Position numbers and translations under genes: made by a program. Below the pieces are notes generated by a model. It was not told the origin of the DNA. It did not search any database and worked only from the letters and a program-made list of their open reading frames with translations. DNA of 64,000 bases from a virus (taxonomy: Duplodnaviria; Caudoviricetes): IMG/VR virus record IMGVR_UViG_3300032219_001867, positions 28,342 through 92,341 of that record. One strand, given 5' to 3'. This document shows, in pieces, positions 3,127 through 64,000 of the stretch; within the stretch, counting starts at the first letter, position 1, and each line of letters opens with the position of its first letter.

Positions 3127-4096
3127 ATGCGCTTTCTCCGTACAACGATGATACCGCATGTTCTAATCCCCAAGCGATTTCGTCGTCCGTCATGTCTCCT
3201 GGGTCTTTTTTACCTGAGTCTCCGTAATTGAAGAAAGAAAGATTTAACCCGTAACGACTGCTAAGGGAAATCAAGTCTGCCGAACCTTTACGCCCCGCAT
3301 CGTCTACCTTCGGATTATCTAAAGCAGAAATTACGCGGTCTGAATTACGTATCAGTTTTACCTGGGCGTCGCTGATGATAGAGCCACACACTGCAACGGC
3401 TCCATGAAATCCGGCAGAGTAAATTCGTGCGCAGTCCAAAGGAGATTCCACAAGTATGGTCAGTTCATCCGGCATAATATCCACGCCAAATAGTGTTTTA
3501 GACTTGGCTAGGCCTGGGGGACGGTTCATGAAACGCCTGTTCAGAGTACCTTTTTCTTGCCAACCGAGAAGCTTACCCGTGTGTGGGTCACGAAGCGGAA
3601 GAACCCAAGAGTCGGTCTTGGTGTCCCAAAGGATTCCGTAAACCTGAGCAGATTCAAGAGTAATGTTTTTAGCAAGCAACTGTTCTAGTGGAGGGTCGGA
3701 GTAAACCGCAAGACGGGCGTCAGACATCTCGATTGGCTTATCGTATGACTGAGCAAAGCGAGGCATGTCGGTCAGTGCTTGGGCCAGACGCTCAGGGGAA
3801 ATCTGGGCAACATTAGCCAACCACACCTTTGCGGAAGTGTAATCTGGGTCGTGTAAATCTCCCCAAGATTCTATGAAAAAACCCTTGACATCGCAGACTA
3901 AATGTAGTAAGCCTCCGCTGTAGTGACAAGAGAAACAAATGTGTTGACCGGTCTCAAGGTTTATCCACCATGATGGCGAGTTGTCTTTCCTACCAACACG
4001 CTCGTAGTGCATAGGGCATAGCCCGTTGGCTTCATTGCCACGAACATCAAAGTCAATGCCCAGCTCAATAAGGACGCTCTCAATATCTACGTTCAT
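3119..4096 (-). CDS. DNA primase (CHC2 Zn finger + TOPRIM)
   Basis: CPMH...CFSC zinc-binding domain, LVESPLDC, LDN..DDAG and KDPGD TOPRIM motifs. Confidence 0.9.
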   Translation of the reverse strand: MNVDIESVLIELGIDFDVRGNEANGLCPMHYERVGRKDNSPSWWINLETGQHICFSCHYSGGLLHLVCDVKGFFIESWGDLHDPDYTSAKVWLANVAQISPERLAQALTDMPRFAQSYDKPIEMSDARLAVYSDPPLEQLLAKNITLESAQVYGILWDTKTDSWVLPLRDPHTGKLLGWQEKGTLNRRFMNRPPGLAKSKTLFGVDIMPDELTILVESPLDCARIYSAGFHGAVAVCGSIISDAQVKLIRNSDRVISALDNPKVDDAGRKGSADLISLSSRYGLNLSFFNYGDSGKKDPGDMTDDEIAWGLEHAVSSLYGESAYV

Positions 4097-5343
4097 TAGA
4101 TTGTCCAGGGAACGCAGAACTTACAAGAGCCCCTTGACTCCTCATCGTGGAAACAGCCCGTCTCCCATCCCCACATAATAGAAGTTTCTTCTTGTGGGCA
4201 GTTACGAGACTGGACAATCTTTAAAAGACGAGTTGACTCATCATTCTCTATAGGCTCCAAACCAAGAATTACGTCGGAGTCTTGAAAGAACGAAGATGAA
4301 TAACCAATAGAGTCTGCGGTAACTTTGTTGCCCCGCATCTTCCACAGGAGTGTTTGAGTGGTTATTACAACGGGAATGTCTAGGCGCTGAGCAACCCGCT
4401 TAAGCCCTCGGGTGATATTGGTGAGTGCTTGTGGCGTATTAGAGTCACCGGTAACCTGGTCCAGCATCAGGTAAACACCGTCAATAAAAAGAATGTCTGG
4501 CTGTAGTTGGTCAGCCTTAGCCATCAAAGAATCTATGGTAAGTCCGTTAACGGCATCCACTAAATGGAACGGGTGCATATCGTTCATAGAACCCAAAGTA
4601 GCTGTATAACGAGAAAACTCTTCCTCATTCAGAATTCCTCGGCGCAATCGGGAATGCGAGATGTGAGAACGCATGGCATCGTGACGTTGAACTTGTTCCA
4701 TGTTGTTCATCTCAAAACTTTGGAACATAGGTGTCTTGCCATCTAAATGGGTGTTGATTGCGATTTGCAAAGCAATCTGTGACTTACCAGTCTTAGGTGG
4801 AGCGATAACGGTAATGAGTTGTCCGCCCTGAAGACCAGCGGTTGCCTCGTCAATGAGACGGTACCCAGTTGGGATGCCTAGAAGTTTAGAGTCTTTAATT
4901 TTTTCGTAGTCCAGCAAACGGGAGCTGGGGTCTTGAGTAACGTCAATGTGGTGAGTACCTACTTGGCCTTGCTCATTAACGATAGTTACCGTGCGGGACA
5001 TCTCTTCGATAGCCGCGTCATTTTCGTTACGCTGGAGTTTTGCTACAACGCTGGCTGTTCCTTCAAGAGCCAAAGAACGGCGACGGAAAGCCACCATCTG
5101 GTCAATAAGGTAATCAATCGTGTCTTCAACATTTAGGATGTCGAAGTTAGGAAAGTTATCTTTAACCGTGGTGTAAGTAGGAACTTCACGGTACTTGACG
5201 TAGTGCTCACGAGTGAACTTCCAGACGCGACGAAGGTCGTCATCAATAACCCAATCATCCTGGATTCCTTGTTCAAGAACCGGGATGATGTTTCGGTCAG
5301 TGATGACTTTGCTTAGAAGTCGGTATTCGTTATCGTTCGCCAT
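4096..5343 (-). CDS. dnaB: DnaB-like replicative helicase
   Basis: GIPTGY, Walker A APPKTGKS, SFEM, FIDGVYLM and QDSDVIL motifs. Confidence 0.9.
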   Translation of the reverse strand: MANDNEYRLLSKVITDRNIIPVLEQGIQDDWVIDDDLRRVWKFTREHYVKYREVPTYTTVKDNFPNFDILNVEDTIDYLIDQMVAFRRRSLALEGTASVVAKLQRNENDAAIEEMSRTVTIVNEQGQVGTHHIDVTQDPSSRLLDYEKIKDSKLLGIPTGYRLIDEATAGLQGGQLITVIAPPKTGKSQIALQIAINTHLDGKTPMFQSFEMNNMEQVQRHDAMRSHISHSRLRRGILNEEEFSRYTATLGSMNDMHPFHLVDAVNGLTIDSLMAKADQLQPDILFIDGVYLMLDQVTGDSNTPQALTNITRGLKRVAQRLDIPVVITTQTLLWKMRGNKVTADSIGYSSSFFQDSDVILGLEPIENDESTRLLKIVQSRNCPQEETSIMWGWETGCFHDEESRGSCKFCVPWTI

Positions 5344-5779: not shown

Positions 5780-6084
5780 GGGAGGACTTCGATGTGTGAG
5801 TGGTGAATAAGCAACTCGCGAAAACTCTCTGGACTCAGTAGAGCTTCGTGAAGGTCTTCGTCAGACAAGTACTCAGGAATTTTTATGGAGTAATCTCCAC
5901 CGTTCCTGTCAATCTGTGCGCGGATGTGTCGGATGTGCTTGCAACGTTTTCCTGTTTTGTAATACGAACAGGTGCAACGCATCTTGCGGTAATCGTCTAC
6001 CACAATCTCAACTTCATGAACGCCGTCGTCAGAAAGAAACAGCTGAATAGTTCGCCAGTCCATGTTTACACTTGCGCCTTTCAC
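5776..6084 (-). CDS. SWIM zinc-finger protein
   Basis: CTC-x8-CKH SWIM motif. Confidence 0.7.
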   Translation of the reverse strand: MKGASVNMDWRTIQLFLSDDGVHEVEIVVDDYRKMRCTCSYYKTGKRCKHIRHIRAQIDRNGGDYSIKIPEYLSDEDLHEALLSPESFRELLIHHSHIEVLP

Positions 6085-6800
6085 TGTCCCCTCCTGAGGT
6101 CTTCTCCTTCTAGTTTAACCCTTAAAAAAGCTTCATGGGCGAAACTACCCATTGCTTCAGAGTACATTTTGTCCCACTTCTCCATCTCTACGTTAGTAGT
6201 GATAATCGTGGGAAGACCCTTGTCGTATCGAGTGCGCAAAATATCGTCAAAAGAATAGTCGTCGTATTTAGAGCCGTACTCTTTACCCAAATCATCAAGG
6301 ACAAGCAAGCGAACGTTGTAAGCGTCATCACGGCAACGACCGTGGAACCCATCCATTTCATCCTGAAGGCTTGCACGAACGTCTGAGTCGGCATCAAAGA
6401 TAGCCTTCTTGCGGTACAGGAAATCCGTGTAGGTCATGTAATAGATGGGGCGAAACTTGTGCCCGTAGGAAGACGGGTGTACGTGCATTAGGGCAGAAGC
6501 GCGGTCGTCTTCGGGAAGCGCCCGGATAAACTCGTTGAGAATGGCTACAGCGTGCGTAGTCTTTCCTCGTCCCGGAGAACCGTCAAACAAAATTCCCAAA
6601 CCGGTCTTCCCTAAGTTGCCAGCCTTCATGATGATTTCCCCAGAAAGAAGGTCGTTCATCCAGTCGGTCAAATCGGTAGGGATTGTCCCCATGTCTTTTT
6701 CGATGTCCTCAAAATCCCATTGAAGGTAGCGCACTGGAATGTTTGAGTTCTTCGCCAACCAGTAACGCTTTACTGGGGGAAGAGATTCAATCTTGAACAC
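6081..6800 (-). CDS. DnaC/IstB-like helicase-loader ATPase
   Basis: Walker A GSPGRGKT, Walker B LLVLDDLGKE, PTIITTN; lies directly after the initiator. Confidence 0.85.
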   Translation of the reverse strand: MFKIESLPPVKRYWLAKNSNIPVRYLQWDFEDIEKDMGTIPTDLTDWMNDLLSGEIIMKAGNLGKTGLGILFDGSPGRGKTTHAVAILNEFIRALPEDDRASALMHVHPSSYGHKFRPIYYMTYTDFLYRKKAIFDADSDVRASLQDEMDGFHGRCRDDAYNVRLLVLDDLGKEYGSKYDDYSFDDILRTRYDKGLPTIITTNVEMEKWDKMYSEAMGSFAHEAFLRVKLEGEDLRRGQ

Positions 6801-7847
6801 CTAGTGTCCCTTCTGGGTCAACTTTGATTCGTACTCAGCCATCCTCTTTCGGCCCAAGAGAGAATTTACAAACTGCTTACCGTCAGAAGCATACACATGC
6901 TGAACTGGTTCTGCTTGGTCTTGTTTAAAAACCGGCGAGTCTAGGCCCAGTCGTTCATACGCCCGCGTCATGTGAGTCTTGAACATGCTGAGGTAACGAG
7001 TGTGGATTGTGCTTGCTTGCTCATCAGCGTTGCGCAGATTACGCTCGTCCTCAAAAAACATCCGCATAATTTCCATCTCGATATCCCCAGTGGTTTTAAC
7101 CTTGAATCGATAACCGCGCAACGCACCGGCAACGGCACGGGTGTTTACCAAACCTGGAATGTACGGAAAACGGCGACCAAGTTGAAACTGAAACTCGACG
7201 GCAACGTCAAACGGGGTCCACTCAGATTCTGGGCGGCGACCCCGAGTCTTGGGGTCTTTCTTGTTCATGCTGAGCTTGGGCTTCTGCATAGCCGGGACCT
7301 CATCATCGAAAAGACCAAAGCCTCCAATGTCATCATCGCCGGTCGTATCTTCACCGAGAGGTTTCCATTTTTCCACATTCACACCCTTCATTAGCGGAAC
7401 ACTTTCGGTGTTCCGTAAAGAATACGAAGTATTCTTTATCACACTAGTTTTGTAGTTATTATAGTTAATAGCTGGGGCAGGTAGCCATGTAGTACCACGT
7501 GTTGACCCCACAGATTTGTGGGATGGTGGCTCTGACCACCCCACAGATACGAGGGATGGTTCCGGCTTCAAATCCACAGTATTGTGGGATGGTAAAACCA
7601 ACTGGTAACGGTTCTTAGACCACTTGCCAAAGTTGCGCTTGGTACGGACCGTGTCCAACAGACCTGCCTTCTCCAGCCCCCTGAAGGCGCGTCGCAGACT
7701 TTCAGCGCTATAACCAGTCAGCACCCCAAGTTCATCTGTTGTCGCTTCTACGAGCCACTCAGGGCCGGATAGATGGTACAGCGAAACAACGACTTTAAAT
7801 TCCGTTGCCGTAAGTTCCGTCGCAAAAAATTCAGGAGGTAGATTCAT
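6801..7847 (-). CDS. phage replication initiator (N-terminal winged HTH)
   Basis: N-terminal wHTH (ELGVLTGYSAESLRRAFRGLEKAGLL...NRYQL), internal iterons, upstream of the DnaC-like gene. Confidence 0.7.
   Translation of the reverse strand: MNLPPEFFATELTATEFKVVVSLYHLSGPEWLVEATTDELGVLTGYSAESLRRAFRGLEKAGLLDTVRTKRNFGKWSKNRYQLVLPSHNTVDLKPEPSLVSVGWSEPPSHKSVGSTRGTTWLPAPAINYNNYKTSVIKNTSYSLRNTESVPLMKGVNVEKWKPLGEDTTGDDDIGGFGLFDDEVPAMQKPKLSMNKKDPKTRGRRPESEWTPFDVAVEFQFQLGRRFPYIPGLVNTRAVAGALRGYRFKVKTTGDIEMEIMRMFFEDERNLRNADEQASTIHTRYLSMFKTHMTRAYERLGLDSPVFKQDQAEPVQHVYASDGKQFVNSLLGRKRMAEYESKLTQKGH
7506..7593. repeat. three 22-bp iterons at 33-bp period (putative origin inside initiator gene)
   Basis: ccccacagatttgtgggatggt (7506), ccccacagatacgagggatggt (7539), atccacagtattgtgggatggt (7572); AT-rich tract at ~7425-7470. 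Confidence 0.65.
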
Positions 7848-8152: not shown

Positions 8153-10579
8153 CTACGCCGAAAAATTGGCAAACCTAGAACCCTGAACAGTTTCAATTCC
8201 CGTAGAAGACCGAACAATGTACGGCGTGTTATTTGGCAAGTACTTTGTTAGTTCAACAAAAAGGCGCGAAAGACGCTCAGCCTTATTGTAGAAAAGAATA
8301 GATTCTCCATTAGAAGCAACGCTTGCTCCAAGCTCTGTCATACTTCCGTCAAAGTAATCTCTAGCCACGTAAGCTTGTTCCACTTGAACTGCGTCTATAT
8401 CAATTTGGACACTAGTAGTCACGCTTGCTTTAAAAGATATGTTCGTGTAACTTAGCGGAACAAAAGCGGTTACTTCAAACCTTTGCCAGGAAGTTGACAG
8501 TACAACGGCCTTACTGGCGGCAGTTCCGAGGGTCCCATTATCTATTGGGGTTAAGGATACGGTTACCGTAGGGGTACCCGCGTTCGCTCTAAGGTAGACG
8601 GACAGCGTGTAGTGCCTACCAGCAATGCTGGTTCCTGCATTGGTTGTCGTAGAAACAACCGAAGATACACTAGTTACTACTTGAAGGCACTTTGACCCCG
8701 CAGCAAGGCCCGGTGGAAAACGCGACTCCCGAGTAAGTGTTCCCGCTGTCGTTGACCACCCAGTGGTGTTGGTTTCAAAGGACGGGTTAAGAATGTAATT
8801 TGTTTTACTCGGCGCTAAGGTAGCCGTGATTCCCCTGGCCTCATTAAAACTTGTAACCGAAGAGACAGCAAATTGCATACTGTCTAGCAACACGTAATAA
8901 TCTGGGTATCCAGTCTGGGCAACGGCTGCATCATAACTAACCGACCCTGTAACCACATTGTTAAACGTAAGTTGTACACCAGCAAATGCAGCCGCTTCCC
9001 TAGAAGCGTTTCCAACAGTCGCTGCGCCGGTTCCAACCGTAACGTTGCCGTCAGTAGTAGTAAAGGTAAGGGTGGTGCCAGAAGCTACTGTTACTGTAAC
9101 TTTTTTTGAAAAACCGGCATAAGCGCCCGATTGTGGAATGTTAATCAAAACAGGGTCATTAGTAGTAAACGCAGATGTACTAGCCATAGTTACAGTTGCT
9201 GTTCCAGAACTTATCTGAAACTGGGTTATGTTGGCTGTAGCCGCTGGGGGCGCAGTTGCTGTAACACTTTGTTTGGCCCAAGAAGTGGTTACTGTGTAAT
9301 TACTACCCGTTACTTGCCGAATTTTGTTTCCGTAAATGTCAAACCAAAAAACACTGGGCGTAGAGGTCACTGTTGGTGCACCTGTGTTCTTTTGTTGATA
9401 ATAACTAAAGGTGTACTCGGTGTTAGGAGAAACTTTGATGCCTTCAGTAACAGGGCGAGTTACTCCGTTTGACATCCACGCACCGGCTGTTTTAATAGCC
9501 ACTTGTCCCGTATACCTTAGGTCAATGGTGTTTGCTTCTGTAGCAATGGGAACTGGCGTAAAAAAGTTTCTTGCATAAACGGCGCATCCGTTGTACGTTT
9601 TCCAAAGTCCAACGCCGCGTCTGAAAGTGCTGTCCTGGTTAGAAGTCATTAGGTTTGGGGAGGAAGTTAAAGCAACATCAAAACCCGTCATGGCTTCAAT
9701 CAAAGTAGTTACGCTTTTTGGAGTTCCCTTAGAACCATAAATATAACGGGCTTCTCTTACCAACTGCCTTTGGTATTTTGTGGATGCACGGTTGTCTTGA
9801 GTAAGCCCTAAGTCGTATGCCTTTGCATCTAAGATACTCGTAGAAAAATTAGCCGCAGTGTAATCCGGTAGCAAAAAATCCGCTAGAGTCATTAGCTCAT
9901 CAAGGGTGTACGAAAGACCGCCAAGAAACTTATACAAATCTGAGTTTTGTTTAATTTCATCTAATGGTGATTGAGTTTCTGACGTAAACGTTCTTGGCAA
10001 AAGGTCCAAAAACTTTTCGTGCGTAGTCCGTGTTCGAGTTCTATTTGAATCCGGTTTTGTTCCTGTAACTGTGCCGGTACCTACCACGTCATCGGTATTA
10101 GCAAGTATGGTCGCATGGTCTGTTGCCAATAGAATTTCCAAAGACCCCACGTTAGTCCAGACCAACGCCGTTGCTGCTTCATTGAGGCTAAGCACCCAGA
10201 TTGTGTAGTAAACGTTTTTGCCCGAAGGTAGGGCCTGAACTCCTGGAAAATACGTAGCATCTTGCACACCTGTGGTTAGGTAAACAGAACGAGATGTTTC
10301 TCCAATAGGAGCGGCACCATCCAACTTGTACTGTTGTTGTTCTGGTGAAATTGACGTCTCGTCATAAACAATGATTCCGTCTTCTTGAGATTCAGAAAAG
10401 TTATCGGAATTACGAACAACCCTAATACGCACAATGTCTGTGGCTGGTTGTTTCCAACTCAAAAAAATGTTGTCATAGTTTATTGCGATGCCATAAAAGG
10501 GCGCAATAGACAACGTGCTAGTAGCGGAAGTTCCGTAATATGCACCAGAGTTGTAATTAAAAGTAGTATACCGAGGCAT
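8153..10579 (-). CDS. baseplate wedge/tail protein with carbohydrate-binding-like domains
   Basis: P2 gpI-like segment (ARYIYGSKGT...IEAMTG), repeated NPSFE/CBM4-9-like beta domains; in baseplate operon. Confidence 0.65.
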   Translation of the reverse strand: MPRYTTFNYNSGAYYGTSATSTLSIAPFYGIAINYDNIFLSWKQPATDIVRIRVVRNSDNFSESQEDGIIVYDETSISPEQQQYKLDGAAPIGETSRSVYLTTGVQDATYFPGVQALPSGKNVYYTIWVLSLNEAATALVWTNVGSLEILLATDHATILANTDDVVGTGTVTGTKPDSNRTRTRTTHEKFLDLLPRTFTSETQSPLDEIKQNSDLYKFLGGLSYTLDELMTLADFLLPDYTAANFSTSILDAKAYDLGLTQDNRASTKYQRQLVREARYIYGSKGTPKSVTTLIEAMTGFDVALTSSPNLMTSNQDSTFRRGVGLWKTYNGCAVYARNFFTPVPIATEANTIDLRYTGQVAIKTAGAWMSNGVTRPVTEGIKVSPNTEYTFSYYQQKNTGAPTVTSTPSVFWFDIYGNKIRQVTGSNYTVTTSWAKQSVTATAPPAATANITQFQISSGTATVTMASTSAFTTNDPVLINIPQSGAYAGFSKKVTVTVASGTTLTFTTTDGNVTVGTGAATVGNASREAAAFAGVQLTFNNVVTGSVSYDAAVAQTGYPDYYVLLDSMQFAVSSVTSFNEARGITATLAPSKTNYILNPSFETNTTGWSTTAGTLTRESRFPPGLAAGSKCLQVVTSVSSVVSTTTNAGTSIAGRHYTLSVYLRANAGTPTVTVSLTPIDNGTLGTAASKAVVLSTSWQRFEVTAFVPLSYTNISFKASVTTSVQIDIDAVQVEQAYVARDYFDGSMTELGASVASNGESILFYNKAERLSRLFVELTKYLPNNTPYIVRSSTGIETVQGSRFANFSA

Positions 10580-44379: not shown

Positions 44380-44508
44380 ATGTCTGAAATTGACGAGACC
44401 GTAGAGGTCGAAGCAGAAGAGGTCGAGGCTGAAGAGGTCGAGGCTGAAGAGGTCGAGGCTGAAGAGGTCGAAGCTGACGAAGACGCCGACGAGGCTGACT
44501 CGGAGTAA
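44380..44508 (+). CDS. 42-aa poly-acidic protein with EEVEA repeats
   Basis: MSEIDETVEVEAEEVEAEEVEAEEVEAEEVEADEDADEADSE*; SD AAAGGA; 15-bp tandem repeats. Confidence 0.65.
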   Translation: MSEIDETVEVEAEEVEAEEVEAEEVEAEEVEADEDADEADSE

Positions 44509-58349: not shown

Positions 58350-58532
58350 CTAAGAACGCCCACGCTTGTACTGCTTGTTAGCTTTCCTAACTACCTTCTT
58401 GCTAACAGGCGTGGAAGAGGCATAGCCCCGGTTCTCAAGGTTCTTCTGAGCTGCCTTATCCATTACCGACTTGACCATCTTAATCCGCTGGTCTCTAGTC
58501 CGGTCTTCTCTACGGTCATTGAATTCAATCAT
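58350..58532 (-). CDS. small basic protein
   Basis: 60-aa ORF. Confidence 0.45.
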   Translation of the reverse strand: MIEFNDRREDRTRDQRIKMVKSVMDKAAQKNLENRGYASSTPVSKKVVRKANKQYKRGRS

Positions 58533-58536
58533 TTGA

Positions 58537-58890
58537 TTAGTCTCTTCCTAGTGTTTCGTTAAACTGACGACTAAGCTTGAAGCCCTCTTCCATGGTGCCC
58601 AGACGACCTTCTCGCTGAATACGCTCTGCGTCGTCATCGTGGGTACGCGGAGTGGCTGGTTCTGCTACGTGGTTGATGTCTGTATTATTAGCTCGGTGGT
58701 ACTCGTAGAGAGCCTCTCCCTCAAGCGTGTTGGGAATGTAGTGTTCCCAGTTGTGAGGCTCTACATTACGTCCGTAGATAGGCTGATTCAGCTTATTGTA
58801 GTAAACATTGACCGAACTAGTCTTTATCGGAATACCACAAGTCTTACAAACACCGTGTGACAGAGTGGGGTCATCTAGAGGAGAAGTCAT
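58537..58890 (-). CDS. Zn-binding hypothetical protein
   Basis: CKTC...WEH...H; TGC-CACAAT-N6-ATG. Confidence 0.55.
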   Translation of the reverse strand: MTSPLDDPTLSHGVCKTCGIPIKTSSVNVYYNKLNQPIYGRNVEPHNWEHYIPNTLEGEALYEYHRANNTDINHVAEPATPRTHDDDAERIQREGRLGTMEEGFKLSRQFNETLGRD

Positions 58891-59133
58891 ATAACCATTG
58901 TGGCAGACCTACCGGGGCGTTCTATGGATAAAAAAGTGTTTCTGCCTTGGGGCCGAGTGACACTTTTCCGCTATTTTCCGCCATTTTACTCCATGTGACT
59001 GGCTGGCTCTCTTGGGCTACTGCCTCAGATATCAGGTGACAGTCGGGTGTTTGCCCTGGCGGCTTACTCAGCAAAATCGCGCTAAAGGGTGCCCCCTCCC
59101 AGCATACACGGGTGACTGGCAGACTGTCAATAC

Positions 59134-59963
59134 CTCACAGCACATTCACAGGTTCAGTATTCACAGGTAATATTCAGGCTACTGTCAGGTGATTTGCAGG
59201 TTCGTGTGCTTACACCACCAGACTTACTGGACATTTTGTTTACTGTTATCAGGTGTTTTTCAGGTTACGTCCAGACTTCTCATAGGTGTGTCATAGATAT
59301 GTGGCTGGCTATCGTCTGGGAATATCCCGTAATCATTGGTCAAAACGGGCGTCGTTGCTCTCTAAGACGTCAGAATCTACCTACCCATACTTTTGTTTGG
59401 ATTTTGCCATTATGCCCAAAAACGCCTTGTACGCCATTCTGAGACGTTTTCATTGAGTGAAAAGAATCAGGGGATATGGCTAGTCTGTGAGTATCCTGAT
59501 AGGTGTCTGTATGTATCTTGTATGTTCTCTGTATGCTTCCTGATAGATTCCTGTGTGTTTACTGAGGGGGGAAACCCCCCTAGACCCCCCTCACAGGCAA
59601 TTCATAGGAAACTCATAGGTGTCTACTAAGTATATAGACTTAGGGTTTAGAACAATAGTTTAGGCGTTCTCAGGAAACTCATAGGTAACTCATAGTTATA
59701 TACTCAGTATTCTATTTGACTTTTAGTTTAGTGGCTCTCAGGAATCATCCAGACAACGCTCAGTCTACACTCAACAAACTCACAGGTAAAAACTCTCAGG
59801 TTGCTCTCAGGTTGGTGTGCTAATCTGGAGAGGGGAATTATGAATTATGAATTTTTCAACACAAACTAGACCATTAGTCTAGAACGCCGGTCTAGCAACC
59901 CTCACTCTTTATTCTGCCAGTCTTTGCCAGTCTGTTGACTCTGCCACTCACAGGTGTTTCTCA
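59134..59963. repeat. arrays of 11-bp-phased degenerate TCNCAGG repeats
   Basis: cores at 59164/75/86/97, 59250/61/72/83/94, inverted 59485-59562 (8 units), 59594/605/616/627, 59739/50/61/72/83, 59797/808. Confidence 0.8.
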
Positions 59964-60026
59964 GGTTAGTTTTGTATACTCGTCTTAGTGGACATAACAA
60001 GGTGTCCACAGAGAAGGGAAAATATC

Positions 60027-61016
60027 ATGGCACACGAATTAGAAGAAGTAAACGGAGAGGCTAGTTTTGTCTCCTACCGTGAAGTTGCATGGCATGGACT
60101 GGGAACAGTCATTGAACACGAAGCCTCTACCCGCGAAATGCTGGAATTGGCAAACTTACACGACTGGGATATTCAGGTAAACGACGTTCCTCTTGCTGAG
60201 GACGAGACGAGTGCAAAGACTTTCTACAAAGTCACCCGTCGCGACCCCTCAGACCACAGCAAGCGAAATGTTCTTGGTGTCGTGGGCGAACGTTACAGCG
60301 TTCTTCAGAATGAAGAATTGTTCGACTTTGGGGATATGTTGCTTGATGGCGGACGCTGGGAAACTGCTGGTTCTATCAAGAACGGAACACAGGTTTTCGG
60401 TTCTCTTGCTCTAGAGCGTGAGACGGTTCTTGACCCTACCGGCGTATCTGACAGGGTGAACAACTACCTGCTGGTTTCGACTGGACACGACGGTAGCCTT
60501 GCTGTTCAGGTATCGGTGACGCCCGTTCGTGTGGTGTGCGCCAATACTCTCGGTTTCGCTCTCAGGAACGTAAAGCAGTCATTCCGCCTACGTCACACTC
60601 AGTCATTGACTGGGCGCGTGGCACAGGCGCGTGAGGCTCTTGAATTGGCTAGTCAATACATTGACGAGTTTGACAAGGCTATGAGTCTCCTCATTCAGGC
60701 AGAGATGACGCGCGACCAATTTGACAGTCTGATTACTCTTGCTTACCCAAAGCCAGAGGCAGACGTTCGTGGCTCAATGGCAAAGTGGGAAACCAAGCGT
60801 GACGCGCTTTTCGACCTGCTGGACAGCCCGACCAACCGCGACATTTCGGACACCTACTGGGGAGGCTTGAACGCCATGAACGAACGCCTCATGTGGGGAC
60901 GACCGACGCGCGCTGGCAAGGTGGAAAGTATGCTCGCTAGTGCTAGTGGATTCGACGTGGCGACCAATACGGAGAACAACCGCTTGCTCTCGCTGGTTAT
61001 GAGTCAGGTAGCCTAA
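60027..61016 (+). CDS. DUF932 (TIGR03299-like) protein
   Basis: AWHGLG, LGVVGERYSVLQN, ETAGS, HDGS, TPVRVVCANTL, RHT. Confidence 0.85.
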   Translation: MAHELEEVNGEASFVSYREVAWHGLGTVIEHEASTREMLELANLHDWDIQVNDVPLAEDETSAKTFYKVTRRDPSDHSKRNVLGVVGERYSVLQNEELFDFGDMLLDGGRWETAGSIKNGTQVFGSLALERETVLDPTGVSDRVNNYLLVSTGHDGSLAVQVSVTPVRVVCANTLGFALRNVKQSFRLRHTQSLTGRVAQAREALELASQYIDEFDKAMSLLIQAEMTRDQFDSLITLAYPKPEADVRGSMAKWETKRDALFDLLDSPTNRDISDTYWGGLNAMNERLMWGRPTRAGKVESMLASASGFDVATNTENNRLLSLVMSQVA

Positions 61017-61020
61017 ACAG

Positions 61021-61050
61021 ACTGGGGGGATGGGAAACCATCCCCCCAGT
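61021..61050 (+). terminator. GC-rich hairpin after DUF932
   Basis: actggggggatgg-gaaa-ccatccccccagt. Confidence 0.65.
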
Positions 61051-61092
61051 TATCCACAGGCTGTGCATAAGTTATCCACAGCCTGTGGATAA
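61050..61092. promoter_or_regulatory. cluster of four DnaA boxes
   Basis: TTATCCACA 61050, TGTGCATAA 61062, TTATCCACA 61072, TGTGGATAA 61084. Confidence 0.8.
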
Positions 61093-61381
61093 CTTTCTTA
61101 ACTGCTCTATATAGAATTCACTACGTTCATTCATTTCTTTTCAACACAAACTTTTTATCTAGTCTCGCGGTCTAGACAATTCTCCTAGCCCGACCAGACT
61201 GGCAGTCTAATCTCCACAGACTAATCAAACCAACAATCTTTGCTCACAGCGTTTTCACAGGCTTATGGTGTAAGCGCGTTCACAGCCAATTCCCAGGTTC
61301 ACTCACAGGTTCTTCACAGGTTTGGCGTCTAGGCTTGAGTCACAGGCAAGAAGTCTGTCTAGATGAAGAAGGGGAAAGATT

Positions 61382-61576
61382 ATGAGTTTCAAGAGATTAC
61401 CTCAAGAGTTTTTGGGTAAGAACGGAAACTATTACACTCACCTGTGTCGTGAGTGTGATACCAAAACAGGTTACACATATTTCTATGACTCGGTAGATGC
61501 TGAGGTTATCGAATGTGATAACTGTCTAGAGACTGTTTACTCTAGCAACGGTAAAAGAATCCCAGAGCAGGTATAG
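61382..61576 (+). CDS. small Zn-ribbon protein
   Basis: CREC...CDNC. Confidence 0.6.
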   Translation: MSFKRLPQEFLGKNGNYYTHLCRECDTKTGYTYFYDSVDAEVIECDNCLETVYSSNGKRIPEQV

Positions 61577-61586
61577 GAGAAAGAGC

Positions 61587-61763
61587 ATGACAAAGATAGA
61601 CAAATCCACGAAACTCATTCAGGTGCAGGTGTATAACGACAACCATTACCACACCTACCGTTACTACGAAGGCAACCTGTCTGTTCGACCATGTTCAAAT
61701 AAAGAGTGTTACGTCTTTGCGCCAGAATACGCTGAAATTACCATTGACAAAAGAGGAGCATGA
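61587..61763 (+). CDS. 58-aa hypothetical protein
   Basis: SD AGGAG; H..H...C....C. Confidence 0.5.
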   Translation: MTKIDKSTKLIQVQVYNDNHYHTYRYYEGNLSVRPCSNKECYVFAPEYAEITIDKRGA

Positions 61764-61858
61764 CAATGAACAAAGATAAAGAGTGTAACTGCAACGCTAT
61801 GTTTCTTGATTTTACTAACCTTGAGTTTACCTGTAACTGCACGAAGGGGAAAAACTAA
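61760..61858 (+). CDS. 32-aa Cys-rich protein
   Basis: CNC...CNC; ATGA and TAATG overlaps. Confidence 0.5.
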   Translation: MTMNKDKECNCNAMFLDFTNLEFTCNCTKGKN

Positions 61859-62064
61859 TGACTAATCAACTTACTGCAAACTTTATGCAAAATTGGGTGC
61901 AAGACCTACGTCTCTCACGCGCCTACGAAACCGGAAAGAGAGAGGAGCGTAACCGTATCCTCACATTCATCGAGGCACACACTACTCAATGCGCGCTTTC
62001 ATATTGCGAAAAGTGTGTTGACCTTACCAGTCTTATCTACTTTATTACTGAGAGTGAGGACTAA
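61858..62064 (+). CDS. small Cys-containing protein
   Basis: H...C....C..C. Confidence 0.55.
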   Translation: MTNQLTANFMQNWVQDLRLSRAYETGKREERNRILTFIEAHTTQCALSYCEKCVDLTSLIYFITESED

Positions 62065-62069
62065 CAATC

Positions 62070-62252
62070 ATGAGGACAAGAAAGAGTCTTGAACCTATGG
62101 TTCTTTATTACCATTCAGGTAATCAGACTTGGTTTTATACACCAGACTGCATTGGCTGTTATTGGGTAGACGGAGAAACCCTTACCCTTATTGACGCGCT
62201 AGGCTCGGTAGACCGTGTAAGCCTTGAAGTAATCGAAGAATTAGAGGATTAG
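62070..62252 (+). CDS. small hypothetical protein
   Basis: GAGGACTAACAATCATG start. Confidence 0.55.
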   Translation: MRTRKSLEPMVLYYHSGNQTWFYTPDCIGCYWVDGETLTLIDALGSVDRVSLEVIEELED

Positions 62253-62263
62253 GAGACTAAATT

Positions 62264-62533
62264 ATGACTCACCATTTTATGACTGTAACAAGATTCCCAG
62301 AGGGTAACGTGGAGTCTCACGTCTCATGCCTCACTTGTGGAGGTATGTGGCAGGTTGCCGGTGACGGTAGAGGCTCAGGCGCGTTCGCACAGGGTCTGAC
62401 CGGCGACCTAGCCGTAGACTGTCGTGGAGTATCTACTAATCCTAATGGAGGCTGTCACCACTATGCCGGTGAGTGTGCCAGTAGTATCTGTGACATTGAC
62501 TCAGAGTGTAACTGTCTAATCTGTTACTCATGA
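62264..62533 (+). CDS. Cys-rich protein
   Basis: CLTC...CNCLIC. Confidence 0.55.
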   Translation: MTHHFMTVTRFPEGNVESHVSCLTCGGMWQVAGDGRGSGAFAQGLTGDLAVDCRGVSTNPNGGCHHYAGECASSICDIDSECNCLICYS

Positions 62534-62564
62534 GAAAGGGGGGAGAAATCCCCCCTCACCCCCC

Positions 62565-62595
62565 TGTGGATAACTTGTCCACAGGCTGTGCATAA
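62565..62595. promoter_or_regulatory. cluster of three DnaA boxes
   Basis: TGTGGATAA 62565, TTGTCCACA 62575, TGTGCATAA 62587. Confidence 0.8.
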
Positions 62596-62894
62596 CTTTT
62601 CTAAAACCTTATATTTTATGGTATTCACTTCGTTCATACTATTCTTTTCAACACAAACTTTTTATCTAGACCAGCAGTTTACAATCTGATTAGACCAGCA
62701 GTCTAGGCTCACAGGTAACTCTCAGGCTCATGGTATATGCGCCCAATGTGTTAGCCTGACCAAACTCATGTTGCCTAGCCTTAGCAACCATAGCCTTACC
62801 GACTCACAGCACTTTCTCAGGTTGCCATGAGAGGATGTTCTTAGGAATAGAGCCAGACCAAAGAGAGTCTGGACTAAGAGAAAGAGGAAAGAGT

Positions 62895-63212
62895 ATGAAA
62901 GAGTATTCGCCCGATTCGATAGCCTACAGAGAGACTCTTTATGCTCTCAATGACGCTATTGGGAAACTCAATTCAAGTCACAGTATCTACTCAGTCTTTA
63001 TGAGCGACACTATGTATCCTGACGGTAGCGAAAAGACCACAAAGGACGTTCTTGCTATGGCGGATGCCTATAACGCTATGGTTCGTGAGGTTATCACTCT
63101 CACTATGGCACTTGATATTTTCATCGCTATCGGCGCAGACAAGACCTATCGTGAAGAAACTAAAGCACGATACGAAGAAGTCATGGCTAATTCAGAGGGA
63201 GCGTTTCAATAA
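62895..63212 (+). CDS. hypothetical protein
   Basis: SD GAGGA before ATG 62895. Confidence 0.55.
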   Translation: MKEYSPDSIAYRETLYALNDAIGKLNSSHSIYSVFMSDTMYPDGSEKTTKDVLAMADAYNAMVREVITLTMALDIFIAIGADKTYREETKARYEEVMANSEGAFQ

Positions 63213-63412
63213 TGCCACTTACACCAGACCAAGTTGCAGAGTTACAAACTAAGCAGTCATCCTATGGCTGTGGAGCAAATGACTGTTCAGACTGTTATCC
63301 AATCCAGTATGCCTGTTCATGCTGTGACGAATTGTTCGCAAATCCTATCGCTAACAACGAAACCTACCAATGCCCGCTTTGTGGCTGGGTAAACAACGAG
63401 AGAGAGGACTAA
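63212..63412 (+). CDS. Cys-rich Zn-binding protein
   Basis: CSDC, CSCC, CPLC. Confidence 0.6.
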   Translation: MPLTPDQVAELQTKQSSYGCGANDCSDCYPIQYACSCCDELFANPIANNETYQCPLCGWVNNERED

Positions 63413-63417
63413 CAATC

Positions 63418-63513
63418 ATGGCATTTTGCGAACATTGTGGAAACAGACTGTCTTATGAGTCACAGCCCTGTGATTCACCAGCACATAACCGACCCATCGC
63501 TAAAGATAACTGA
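63418..63513 (+). CDS. 31-aa Zn-finger-like protein
   Basis: MAFCEHCG...C...H; conserved start motif. Confidence 0.5.
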   Translation: MAFCEHCGNRLSYESQPCDSPAHNRPIAKDN

Positions 63514-63527
63514 AAGGACTACCAATC

Positions 63528-63788
63528 ATGCCAATCCTACATAAGCCATACGCTGTAAACCGTATCGGGCGATACACCATATCCGTTTTGGACACACTCA
63601 ATGACGAAACCATGCTGTATTCCACAGACGTTCTAGAACGAGCAGAGCGTAGGGCGCAGAGCCTAGTGCGCGTAATGAAGTCTGCCAATGCAGTAATCAC
63701 TATTAGCACTACCGGTGAAGTAGTCTCATACGTCGAAAAGATAAATGACGAAGCAGTTTTGATGCACACCAATGAGGGAGAGGACTAG
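63528..63788 (+). CDS. hypothetical protein
   Basis: conserved start motif. Confidence 0.55.
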   Translation: MPILHKPYAVNRIGRYTISVLDTLNDETMLYSTDVLERAERRAQSLVRVMKSANAVITISTTGEVVSYVEKINDEAVLMHTNEGED

Positions 63789-63793
63789 TAATC

Positions 63794-63937
63794 ATGGCTA
63801 CTAAACCGTGTAACGACTTTGCGCCAGATACTCTCGCCCCTGATGAGGGAGACGGTATTGACTGGACACTCGTTTGTTCGACCTGCCTGTTTCACCGTGA
63901 CGACCACCAACTAGAGAGGACTAGTAATCATGGTTGA
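63794..63937 (+). CDS. 47-aa Zn-finger-like protein
   Basis: C..F...CSTC...H; conserved start motif. Confidence 0.5.
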   Translation: MATKPCNDFAPDTLAPDEGDGIDWTLVCSTCLFHRDDHQLERTSNHG

Positions 63938-64000
63938 TTTTACGTTGGTAGAAGAGTCTCTACAGACTGCTAAGGGTATCGCATACGATACTTGTCATAA
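63930..64000 (+). CDS. hypothetical protein, truncated at window end
   Basis: GAGGACTAGTAATCATG start. Confidence 0.45.
   Translation, partial: MVDFTLVEESLQTAKGIAYDTCH

Follow-up and report, generated by a model that had tools for sequence, protein, structure and literature searches.

We analysed a 64,000-nucleotide (nt) stretch of viral DNA (hereafter the window), which comprises bases 28342-92341 of a 92,341-bp IMG/VR virus contig (IMGVR_UViG_3300032219_001867; Duplodnaviria, Caudoviricetes) and contains two tight arrays of putative binding sites (boxes) for DnaA, the universal bacterial replication initiator, which is also a transcription factor. Coordinates are given in window numbering unless marked as genome positions. 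The arrays sit in the two copies of a duplicated, ~150-bp non-coding block, here called modules B and C, in which a probable terminator hairpin is followed by the boxes, an AT-rich block and TAGAC palindromes, and which separates the first three early transcription units of the phage. The original prediction had described repeated oriC-like modules composed of a hairpin, a box cluster and an AT tract, with four alternating boxes in the first module (61050-61092) and three in the second (62565-62595), perfect and actinobacterial forms among them; all of these elements were recovered.

The + strand early arm of the phage opens with a gene of the DUF932 family (60027-61016, +; PF06067, Pfam E = 9e-48; PHROG 1221), the transcript of which ends at the module B hairpin (61020-61051, +), probably its terminator. 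This hairpin has a 14-bp stem, a GAAA loop and no T-run, reaches an RNA folding energy of -30.5 kcal/mol (z = -5.9), and forms its last two pairs with the first TT of box 1. The four boxes of module B alternate in orientation (+ - + -), with starts 10-12 bp apart and gaps of 3, 1 and 3 bp: 61050 (+, TTATCCACA), 61062 (-, TTATGCACA), 61072 (+, TTATCCACA) and 61084 (-, TTATCCACA). They are followed by the conserved AT-rich block (61110-61174, 65 nt, +), where the 50-mer ranked 13th in the genome for instability is found, by TAGAC/GTCTA palindromes, and by TCNCAGG units spaced ~11 bp apart (61241-61322, continuing to 61340, +), beyond which lie a ribosome site and the ATG at 61382. The second early transcription unit that starts there (61382-62533, +) holds six small genes, several of them Cys-x-x-Cys-rich, and none of the six matched a family in Pfam. 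Module C then repeats the arrangement with a hairpin of 8 bp (62537-62556, +; G/C stem, GAAA loop), for which the folded 41-nt stretch gives -18 kcal/mol, no different from shuffles of that G/C-rich stretch. Its three boxes (62565-62595; - + -) start at 62565 (-, TTATCCACA), 62575 (+, TTGTCCACA) and 62587 (-, TTATGCACA), and are followed by the second copy of the AT-rich block (62617-62681, +) and by TCNCAGG pairs (62706-62823, +) ahead of the ATG at 62895. A 50-mer at 62592-62641, the genome's fourth least stable, reaches from the end of this box array into the start of the AT block. No relatives were found for the first gene after module C.

Pairwise alignment of the two modules places boxes 2-4 of module B opposite boxes 1-3 of module C, and shows ~80% identity from the aligned boxes to GCAGTCTA, with divergence in the remainder, as far as the TCNCAGG pair and ribosome site. 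The AT block itself, which the original prediction had seen as a near-identical tract with a further copy of its core near 59852, is a direct repeat of 65 nt (61110-61174 and 62617-62681, 83% identical) that includes 28 nt without any difference (61135-61162 and 62642-62669). The core, the 15-mer TTTTCAACACAAACT, is found at 61138 and 62645 and also at 59853 (59853-59867, +), in the first control region of the arm (module A), which has no DnaA boxes alongside. A 10-mer, AACACAAACT, occurs at 59857, 61142 and 62649 and, outside the window, at genome position 1153 (module D). All four copies lie on the + strand in spacers between early-arm transcription units, 160-240 nt before the next start codon, two of them with DnaA boxes (B and C) and two without (A and D); AACACAAACT is probably a regulator site or promoter element. 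Because 28 nt remain identical between blocks whose neighbouring boxes have drifted, and because the element occurs box-free in modules A and D, the sequence suggests that the AT block has a specific role beyond easy melting. A small structured RNA at these blocks is unlikely, since a search of 58500-64000 gave no match to an RNA family in Rfam and the AT blocks do not fold. As a handle for finding relatives, the 15-mer core was set aside after it gave 118 matches, about the chance level for the collection, with no close relative among them.

The TCNCAGG repeats reported beyond the AT tracts are likewise concentrated here, with 19 of the 28 forward-strand copies in the genome falling within 59146-62815; units spaced ~11 bp apart occupy 59132-59967, 61241-61340 and 62706-62823. 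The stretch in module B is a putative promoter or activator-site region, and not a further set of DnaA boxes. Promoter candidates found by hand, among them a TGGATA-N16-TATATA that overlaps the last box, are weak, and we make no claim for them.

The contig is estimated to be 96% complete (CheckV). Its bases 1-521 (genome positions) repeat its last 657 bases (window 63344-64000) at 93% identity, with one insertion/deletion of 116 bp that corresponds to one small gene gained or lost; this overlap probably represents two strain variants collapsed at a circular join, and gives no reliable sign of a terminal repeat. Because the contig ends overlap, the + strand gene array that leaves the window resumes at genome position 1, and + strand genes therefore run from window position 59988 across the join to genome position ~9757, with nearly all other genes on the - strand. 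The cumulative GC skew has its minimum at ~58-60 kb, at the gene strand switch, and is indistinguishable there from an effect of transcription. The phage is contractile-tailed, with sheath, baseplate, SPP1-type portal and large terminase all identified, and no near-identical phage DNA was found among GenBank phages. A freshwater member of the Microbacteriaceae is the likely host, on the evidence of the phage ribonucleotide reductase small subunit, which shows 80-83% identity to its counterparts in Aurantimicrobium, Pontimonas, Rhodoglobus and further Microbacteriaceae.

The 92,341-bp genome has four perfect TTATCCACA boxes, every one of them in the two arrays, which together hold 7 of the 30 genome sites with at most one mismatch (four perfect and three with one mismatch). 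Across 500 simulated first-order Markov genomes, no more than two such sites ever fell within 50 bp, as against the four and three observed, and the mean number of perfect boxes per simulated genome was 0.65; the genome-wide scan against background that had been proposed thus places the clustering above chance. Six of the seven boxes fit TT(A/T)TNCACA, and the seventh is the actinobacterial form TTGTCCACA. Starting from the reductase matches, we found dnaA in five Microbacteriaceae genomes and read its flanks: both upstream of the gene and in the dnaA-dnaN spacer, the boxes are TTATCCACA and near variants along with some TTGTCCACA, and in this host oriC they have AG...G flanks and are in places paired 3 bp apart. 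A 13-position matrix built solely from 40 of these host dnaA-flank sites was then used to scan the ~184,000 positions of the phage genome. The five best positions all lie in modules B and C (four at 19.4 bits, one at 15.3 bits; the next scores 12.9), and the seven boxes take ranks 1-5, 9 and 12 (module B: 19.4, 12.4, 19.4 and 19.4 bits; module C: 19.4, 11.9 and 15.3 bits).

On the protein side, Aurantimicrobium minutum, the candidate host checked, encodes a canonical DnaA whose domain IV matches the solved DNA-binding domains of Mycobacterium tuberculosis and Escherichia coli DnaA. A six-frame search of the phage for the corresponding domain (Bac_DnaA_C) returned nothing at E <= 1. Since a matrix derived from host sites alone ranks phage boxes in its top five places, and since the phage has no DnaA-type domain of its own, the arrays are very probably host-DnaA sites of the high-affinity type, judged by sequence. 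Their identification as DnaA boxes stands on three counts: consensus and flanks match the oriC of the likely host, their clustering exceeds chance, and they recur in phages that share the DUF932 gene.

The same matrix allowed some neighbouring sequences to be assessed. TCNCAGG units and the extended DnaA box (TTATC-CACAGG) have CACAGG in common, and the iterons in the phage initiator gene (see below) contain CCACAG. A few of the units reach 11-13 bits (61308, 59155, 60000), but weak DnaA binding was set aside as the main reading of these repeats: CACAGG is all that they have in common with the box, and the variants TCTCAGG and TCATAGG break its core positions. Directly before the ribosome site of the DUF932 gene lies an inverted repeat (59988-60010, GTGGACA-N8-TGTCCAC), the right arm of which, AGGTGTCCACAGA, is a moderate DnaA-like site (11.0 bits).

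Relatives were gathered through two different genes. Homologues of the DUF932 protein (44-58% identity) led to 19 viral loci, two of which are copies of one terminal repeat, leaving 18 distinct loci, and 11 of these 18 have box clusters. The clusters are of two types: tandem pairs 3 bp apart, situated 15-70 nt upstream of a recurrent promoter-like motif (CGGCGTGTCGG...), and arrays of 4-5 boxes beside iteron-like direct repeats, in gene-free stretches of 0.5-0.9 kb that end the + strand early array. Across the 57 boxes of these relatives, there is hardly any variation at positions 1-4 and 6-9, the N of TTATNCACA (position 5) is C in 36, A in 13, G in 4 and T in 4, and the flanks favour A at -2 and G at both -1 and +10, while orientation and spacing vary. 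Because orientation and spacing change between relatives, a dimer operator is disfavoured, and the pattern suggests a monomeric, asymmetric site rather than a symmetric operator bound by a dimer. The complete relative G006 (124.5 kb), which has an exact terminal repeat of 8,517 bp and lacks CCGG, CGCG and GCGC genome-wide, carries 12 of its 15 TTATNCACA boxes in three clusters, all in or near its early arm and terminal repeat.

Ranking relatives by their large terminase gives a different picture. The closest five (G011-G015; 80-89% identity), four of them complete at 91-96 kb and the fifth 87% complete, have no box clusters, only scattered single boxes at a frequency not above that of a reversed-pattern control; they also lack the DUF932 gene, and have no DNA in common with positions 58800-63400 beyond two stretches of ~45 bp. 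The early arm of G011, the only one of these arms that was read, holds other genes, with no TCNCAGG runs and no AT core. A lack of conservation in relatives, which the original prediction had named as grounds for refutation, applies in part: clusters recur in the DUF932-sharing loci and are missing from all five of the closest terminase relatives. The arrays are accessory, as these relatives do without them, and belong to a variable, exchangeable early arm and not to the conserved core of the phage. Nor are the boxes tied to the DUF932 gene everywhere, since the Streptomyces BE-cluster phage Wofford has a DUF932/DUF945 gene in common with this phage and a 14-kb left end without boxes.

Beyond these relatives, the head-to-head pair TTATCCACAGNCTGTGNATAA was recovered from at least 120 stretches in IMG/VR (L239-L358), where a rough estimate gives an expectation of ~0.4. 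After removal of near-duplicates, at least 79 distinct contexts remain, spanning 31-69% G+C. Among the matches listed, 59 of the 79 distinct contexts have at least three boxes within 100 nt, 41% of contexts lie outside any long open frame as compared with 10% of the background, and about a dozen have genes in common with this phage. Several adjoin obvious iterons, as in plasmid-type origins (L249, L358, L285, L321, L343), and one family of 51% G+C (L244, L250, L263 and others) has both TTATCCACA and tandem TTGTCCACA.

The early arm that houses the arrays is further distinguished by a loss of short palindromes. Counting 4-base palindromes against a second-order Markov expectation, we found AGCT 0 times where 49 are expected, GTAC 3 times (50 expected) and TTAA once (42 expected) in the 14.4-kb + strand arm (window ~58790-64000 together with genome positions 1 to ~9990); in the rest of the genome these three are present at 70-77% of expectation, and GATC is absent from the entire 92 kb. 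The edges of the purged arm coincide with the two strand switches, and a footprint of this kind would be expected in DNA exposed before protective functions come into play. The two arrays are set 2.1 and 3.6 kb into the arm, and no boxes occur at its far border (~genome position 9.8 kb); its single TTAA (61098) adjoins the module B box array. A comparable arm in G011 is free of AGCT and TTAA over ~13.8 kb. The early arm appears to be an exchangeable module, with a purge that is conserved. In G006, an arm at 111.3-121.3 kb is depleted in TTAA and ATAT, and DnaA clusters stand at 112.2 and 122.05 kb.

We tentatively favour, and consider close to evenly balanced against being wrong, a reading in which DnaA docks at the arrays to gate or insulate the early transcription units, with titration of DnaA as a side effect. 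That DnaA binds the arrays at all, and every functional consequence of such binding, we infer from sequence comparison. Host DnaA would bind the incoming phage DNA within the first minutes of infection, and the bound protein, positioned just past a terminator and before the next promoter region, would gate or insulate early units 2 and 3, whether by repression, by activation or by blocking read-through RNA polymerase. Once the phage DNA has multiplied, its boxes would outnumber the perfect boxes of the host and DnaA would be soaked up, which is numerically plausible because the likely host genomes contain only 15-21 perfect boxes each. We favour a gate or insulator because of where the boxes are, past a terminator and ahead of the promoter region that follows, and because they are an optional input to a control region that exists without them in modules A and D; the closest relatives have no such boxes. 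A comparable layout is known from the PeSL cassettes of T4-type phages, where small early genes lie between repeated units of terminator stem-loop and promoter, and where the early region varies between close relatives; we know of no description of PeSL units with sites for a host regulator.

Several observations weigh against gating or insulation. The boxes are 240-290 nt from the next start codon, and a scan of modules B and C for sigma-70-type promoters found none. The AT blocks are among the DNA of this genome that melts most easily, as an origin would need. Hairpins flanking the boxes at 77 other distinct viral contexts are not stronger than those at random positions (p = 0.37), and the notion of boxes as helpers of adjacent terminators, left without wider support by this comparison, was dropped.

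The sponge of the original prediction reappears, in a wider form, as the alternative that survives best, although we still think it rather unlikely: the arrays could be a sink for or modulator of DnaA, through titration or through a datA- or DARS-like effect on its nucleotide state, that distorts or shuts off host initiation. The boxes are optimal sites of consensus strength, and at four perfect and three near-perfect boxes per phage, about ten phage copies would exceed the host total; against this, seven sites per genome are few, and a slow-growing host would in a single infection cycle offer little gain from a block on new initiation. An accessory, patchy distribution is what one would look for in a host-takeover add-on, but a sink needs neither precise placement between terminator and promoter nor a conserved neighbouring block. 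The geometry is similarly divided. Like DARS1, DARS2 and datA, loci that act on DnaA itself and do not start replication, each array is a small cluster of 3-4 boxes with oppositely oriented neighbours, though those loci are chromosomal, with accessory IHF and Fis sites in DARS2 and datA, and the present arrays viral. Opposed neighbours are the defining geometry of the DARS core; in E. coli, DARS loci are three-box clusters in which two boxes (I and II) face each other 5 bp apart (PMC6868365), and here the opposed orientation is present with gaps of 3 and 1 bp.

The closest known case of such boxes is the first-step-transfer or injection-stop (iss) region of T5-like phages, in which DnaA boxes always occur in pairs 3 bp apart within untranslated repeat regions, and where membrane-bound DnaA has been proposed by Davison to stop DNA injection (10.1101/866236). 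These boxes have been on record since 1987, according to the later work that cites the report (Heusterspreute 1987, cited in 10.1101/866236). We checked the T5 sequence and found TGGGGATAAgtcTGTTGATAA and TGTTGATAAgtcTGTGGATAA at 9358-9442, past annotated terminators, and a further set of boxes at 6045-6126, a hub of divergent promoters. The two systems agree in having consensus or near-consensus boxes in non-coding, repeat-rich spacers of the earliest region of a large virulent phage, past terminators and by early promoters, in neighbours 3 bp apart (head-to-head here), in GTTATCCACAG flanks and in an early region depleted of restriction sites. They differ in that T5 has tandem pairs set in two large inverted repeats and the present phage boxes of alternating orientation ~11 bp apart, and in that T5 is a siphovirus of enterobacteria and the present phage a contractile-tailed virus of an actinobacterium, the lineages being unrelated.

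The arrays might be a T5-type pause or anchor, at which membrane-associated DnaA holds the entering DNA until early proteins have been made. We regard this as quite improbable here, although the purge of AGCT, GTAC and TTAA is the footprint of DNA exposed before protection. Two-step entry and a 10-kb terminal repeat are proven for T5, whereas here the arrays lie within the purged arm and off its box-free far border, and a terminal repeat is not established, the contig ends overlapping over only ~520 bp at 93%. The T5-type placement, at the far border and within a long terminal repeat, is instead seen in G006, where the four-box cluster at 122.05 kb lies ~0.7 kb past the far end of the purged arm and inside the 8,517-bp repeat; the left repeat copy, with 5.3 kb of purged DNA and then a four-box cluster at 6.0 kb, resembles the layout of T5 first-step-transfer DNA. 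Even in T5 the mechanism is unproven, and the 2023 genome paper on phage BF23 notes that experimental tests of the injection-stop idea are lacking (PMC10644984).

Replication from the modules is the role suggested by their likeness to oriC, and here the genome offers a competitor. The phage encodes a lambda-O-like initiator (6801-7847, -), a DnaC-like loader (6081-6800), a DnaB-like helicase (4096-5343), a family-A DNA polymerase and a UvsX-like recombinase, which bears out the earlier statement that it has an initiator, iterons, loader and helicase of its own. The least stable 50-mer of the genome (7421-7470) falls inside the O-like gene and adjoins three 23-bp iterons (ACCCCACAGATTTGTGGGATGGT and variants; 7505-7593, spaced 33 bp). 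Iterons and unstable DNA within an O-like gene are the layout of the lambda origin, and the phage on this basis already has its own candidate origin. The motif GGGATGGT, found in the iterons and in the module B hairpin, has 7 copies in the genome where ~3 are expected, 3 of them in the iterons, and was treated as a chance match. DnaA boxes beside an AT-rich stretch are also a feature of replicons with their own initiator, such as the P1 oriR, RK2 oriV and pSC101 origins, in which the boxes adjoin the iterons and the gene of that initiator; here, the iterons are 54 kb from the boxes, inside the O-like gene.

An auxiliary, host-DnaA-dependent origin, in which DnaA would melt the AT block and the DnaC-like loader would place the DnaB-like helicase, is accordingly about as doubtful as the entry pause. 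An easily melted element does adjoin the boxes (the 50-mers ranked 4th and 13th for instability, at the 99.9th percentile for 50-bp duplexes), loader and helicase are encoded, and the clusters of some relatives adjoin iteron-like direct repeats. The modules also share with the Microbacteriaceae oriC (the dnaA-dnaN spacer) the box consensus, the flanks, pairs 3 bp apart and an AT-rich stretch alongside; they differ from it in having no linkage to dnaA or dnaN and in being duplicated, with two copies 1.5 kb apart. Under the rule for basal unwinding, a box is followed by a spacer of 0-16 nt and then by at least three DnaA-trios with a central A on the bound strand (PMC8287927). In the required direction, none of the seven phage boxes qualifies, and three of five host dnaA-dnaN spacers do (with spacers of 12-13 nt); as the pattern is permissive and the control only moderate, this counts as no more than supporting evidence. 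The box adjoining each AT block moreover points away from it, and the 28-nt identity of the block and its box-free presence in modules A and D fit poorly with a mere unwinding element. In place of retention in close relatives and a sole initiator, as for an oriC-like element, we found absence from all five closest relatives and the presence of the O-like initiator; being accessory, the arrays are not a core origin. For these reasons (a candidate lambda-type origin elsewhere, no trios, AT cores without boxes and relatives without clusters) the arrays are probably not a phage replication origin, and among the three options of the original prediction, a sponge, a first-round origin dependent on host DnaA or a DnaA-responsive promoter, the origin is the least likely.

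Finally, operators for a phage-encoded protein with a DnaA-box-like site, for example the O-like initiator or a reader of TCACAGG repeats, would account for the near-perfect 21-23-bp palindromes that the boxes form and for the CACAGG end that the extended box shares with the TCACAGG repeats and iterons, but this is very unlikely given that the TTAT half is invariant in the boxes (one TTGT aside) and absent from iterons and TCNCAGG units, that relatives have the same 9-mer in tandem and at other spacings, that the sites are optimal under a host-only matrix, and that the spread of the head-to-head pair over so many viral contexts of such different G+C content points to a universal host factor.

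A broader possibility is that the earliest DNA of phages from many lineages contains a non-coding DnaA dock, used to read or rewire the state of the host initiator. We put this forward as speculation that is more apt to fail than to hold by a wide measure. Were it true, the dock would for example make early expression or DNA entry depend on the availability of DnaA, or would actively reset DnaA in the manner of a viral datA or DARS, and the injection-stop boxes of T5, the arrays described here and the IMG/VR clusters would be instances of one general, protein-free device for host takeover. The present arrays extend the T5 type of box cluster to an unrelated freshwater actinobacterial phage, where the sites are tuned to the oriC consensus of the likely host and lie in an early arm purged of restriction sites, and the further viral contexts, at least 79 in number, argue for a repeatedly evolved general strategy as opposed to an oddity of T5. 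Since Aurantimicrobium and Rhodoluna (both Microbacteriaceae) are culturable, binding and reporter tests are feasible.

Away from the early arm, a gene-free gap in the - strand arm (44403-44477) contains five exact-phase copies of a 15-bp unit, AGAGGTCGAGGCTGA.

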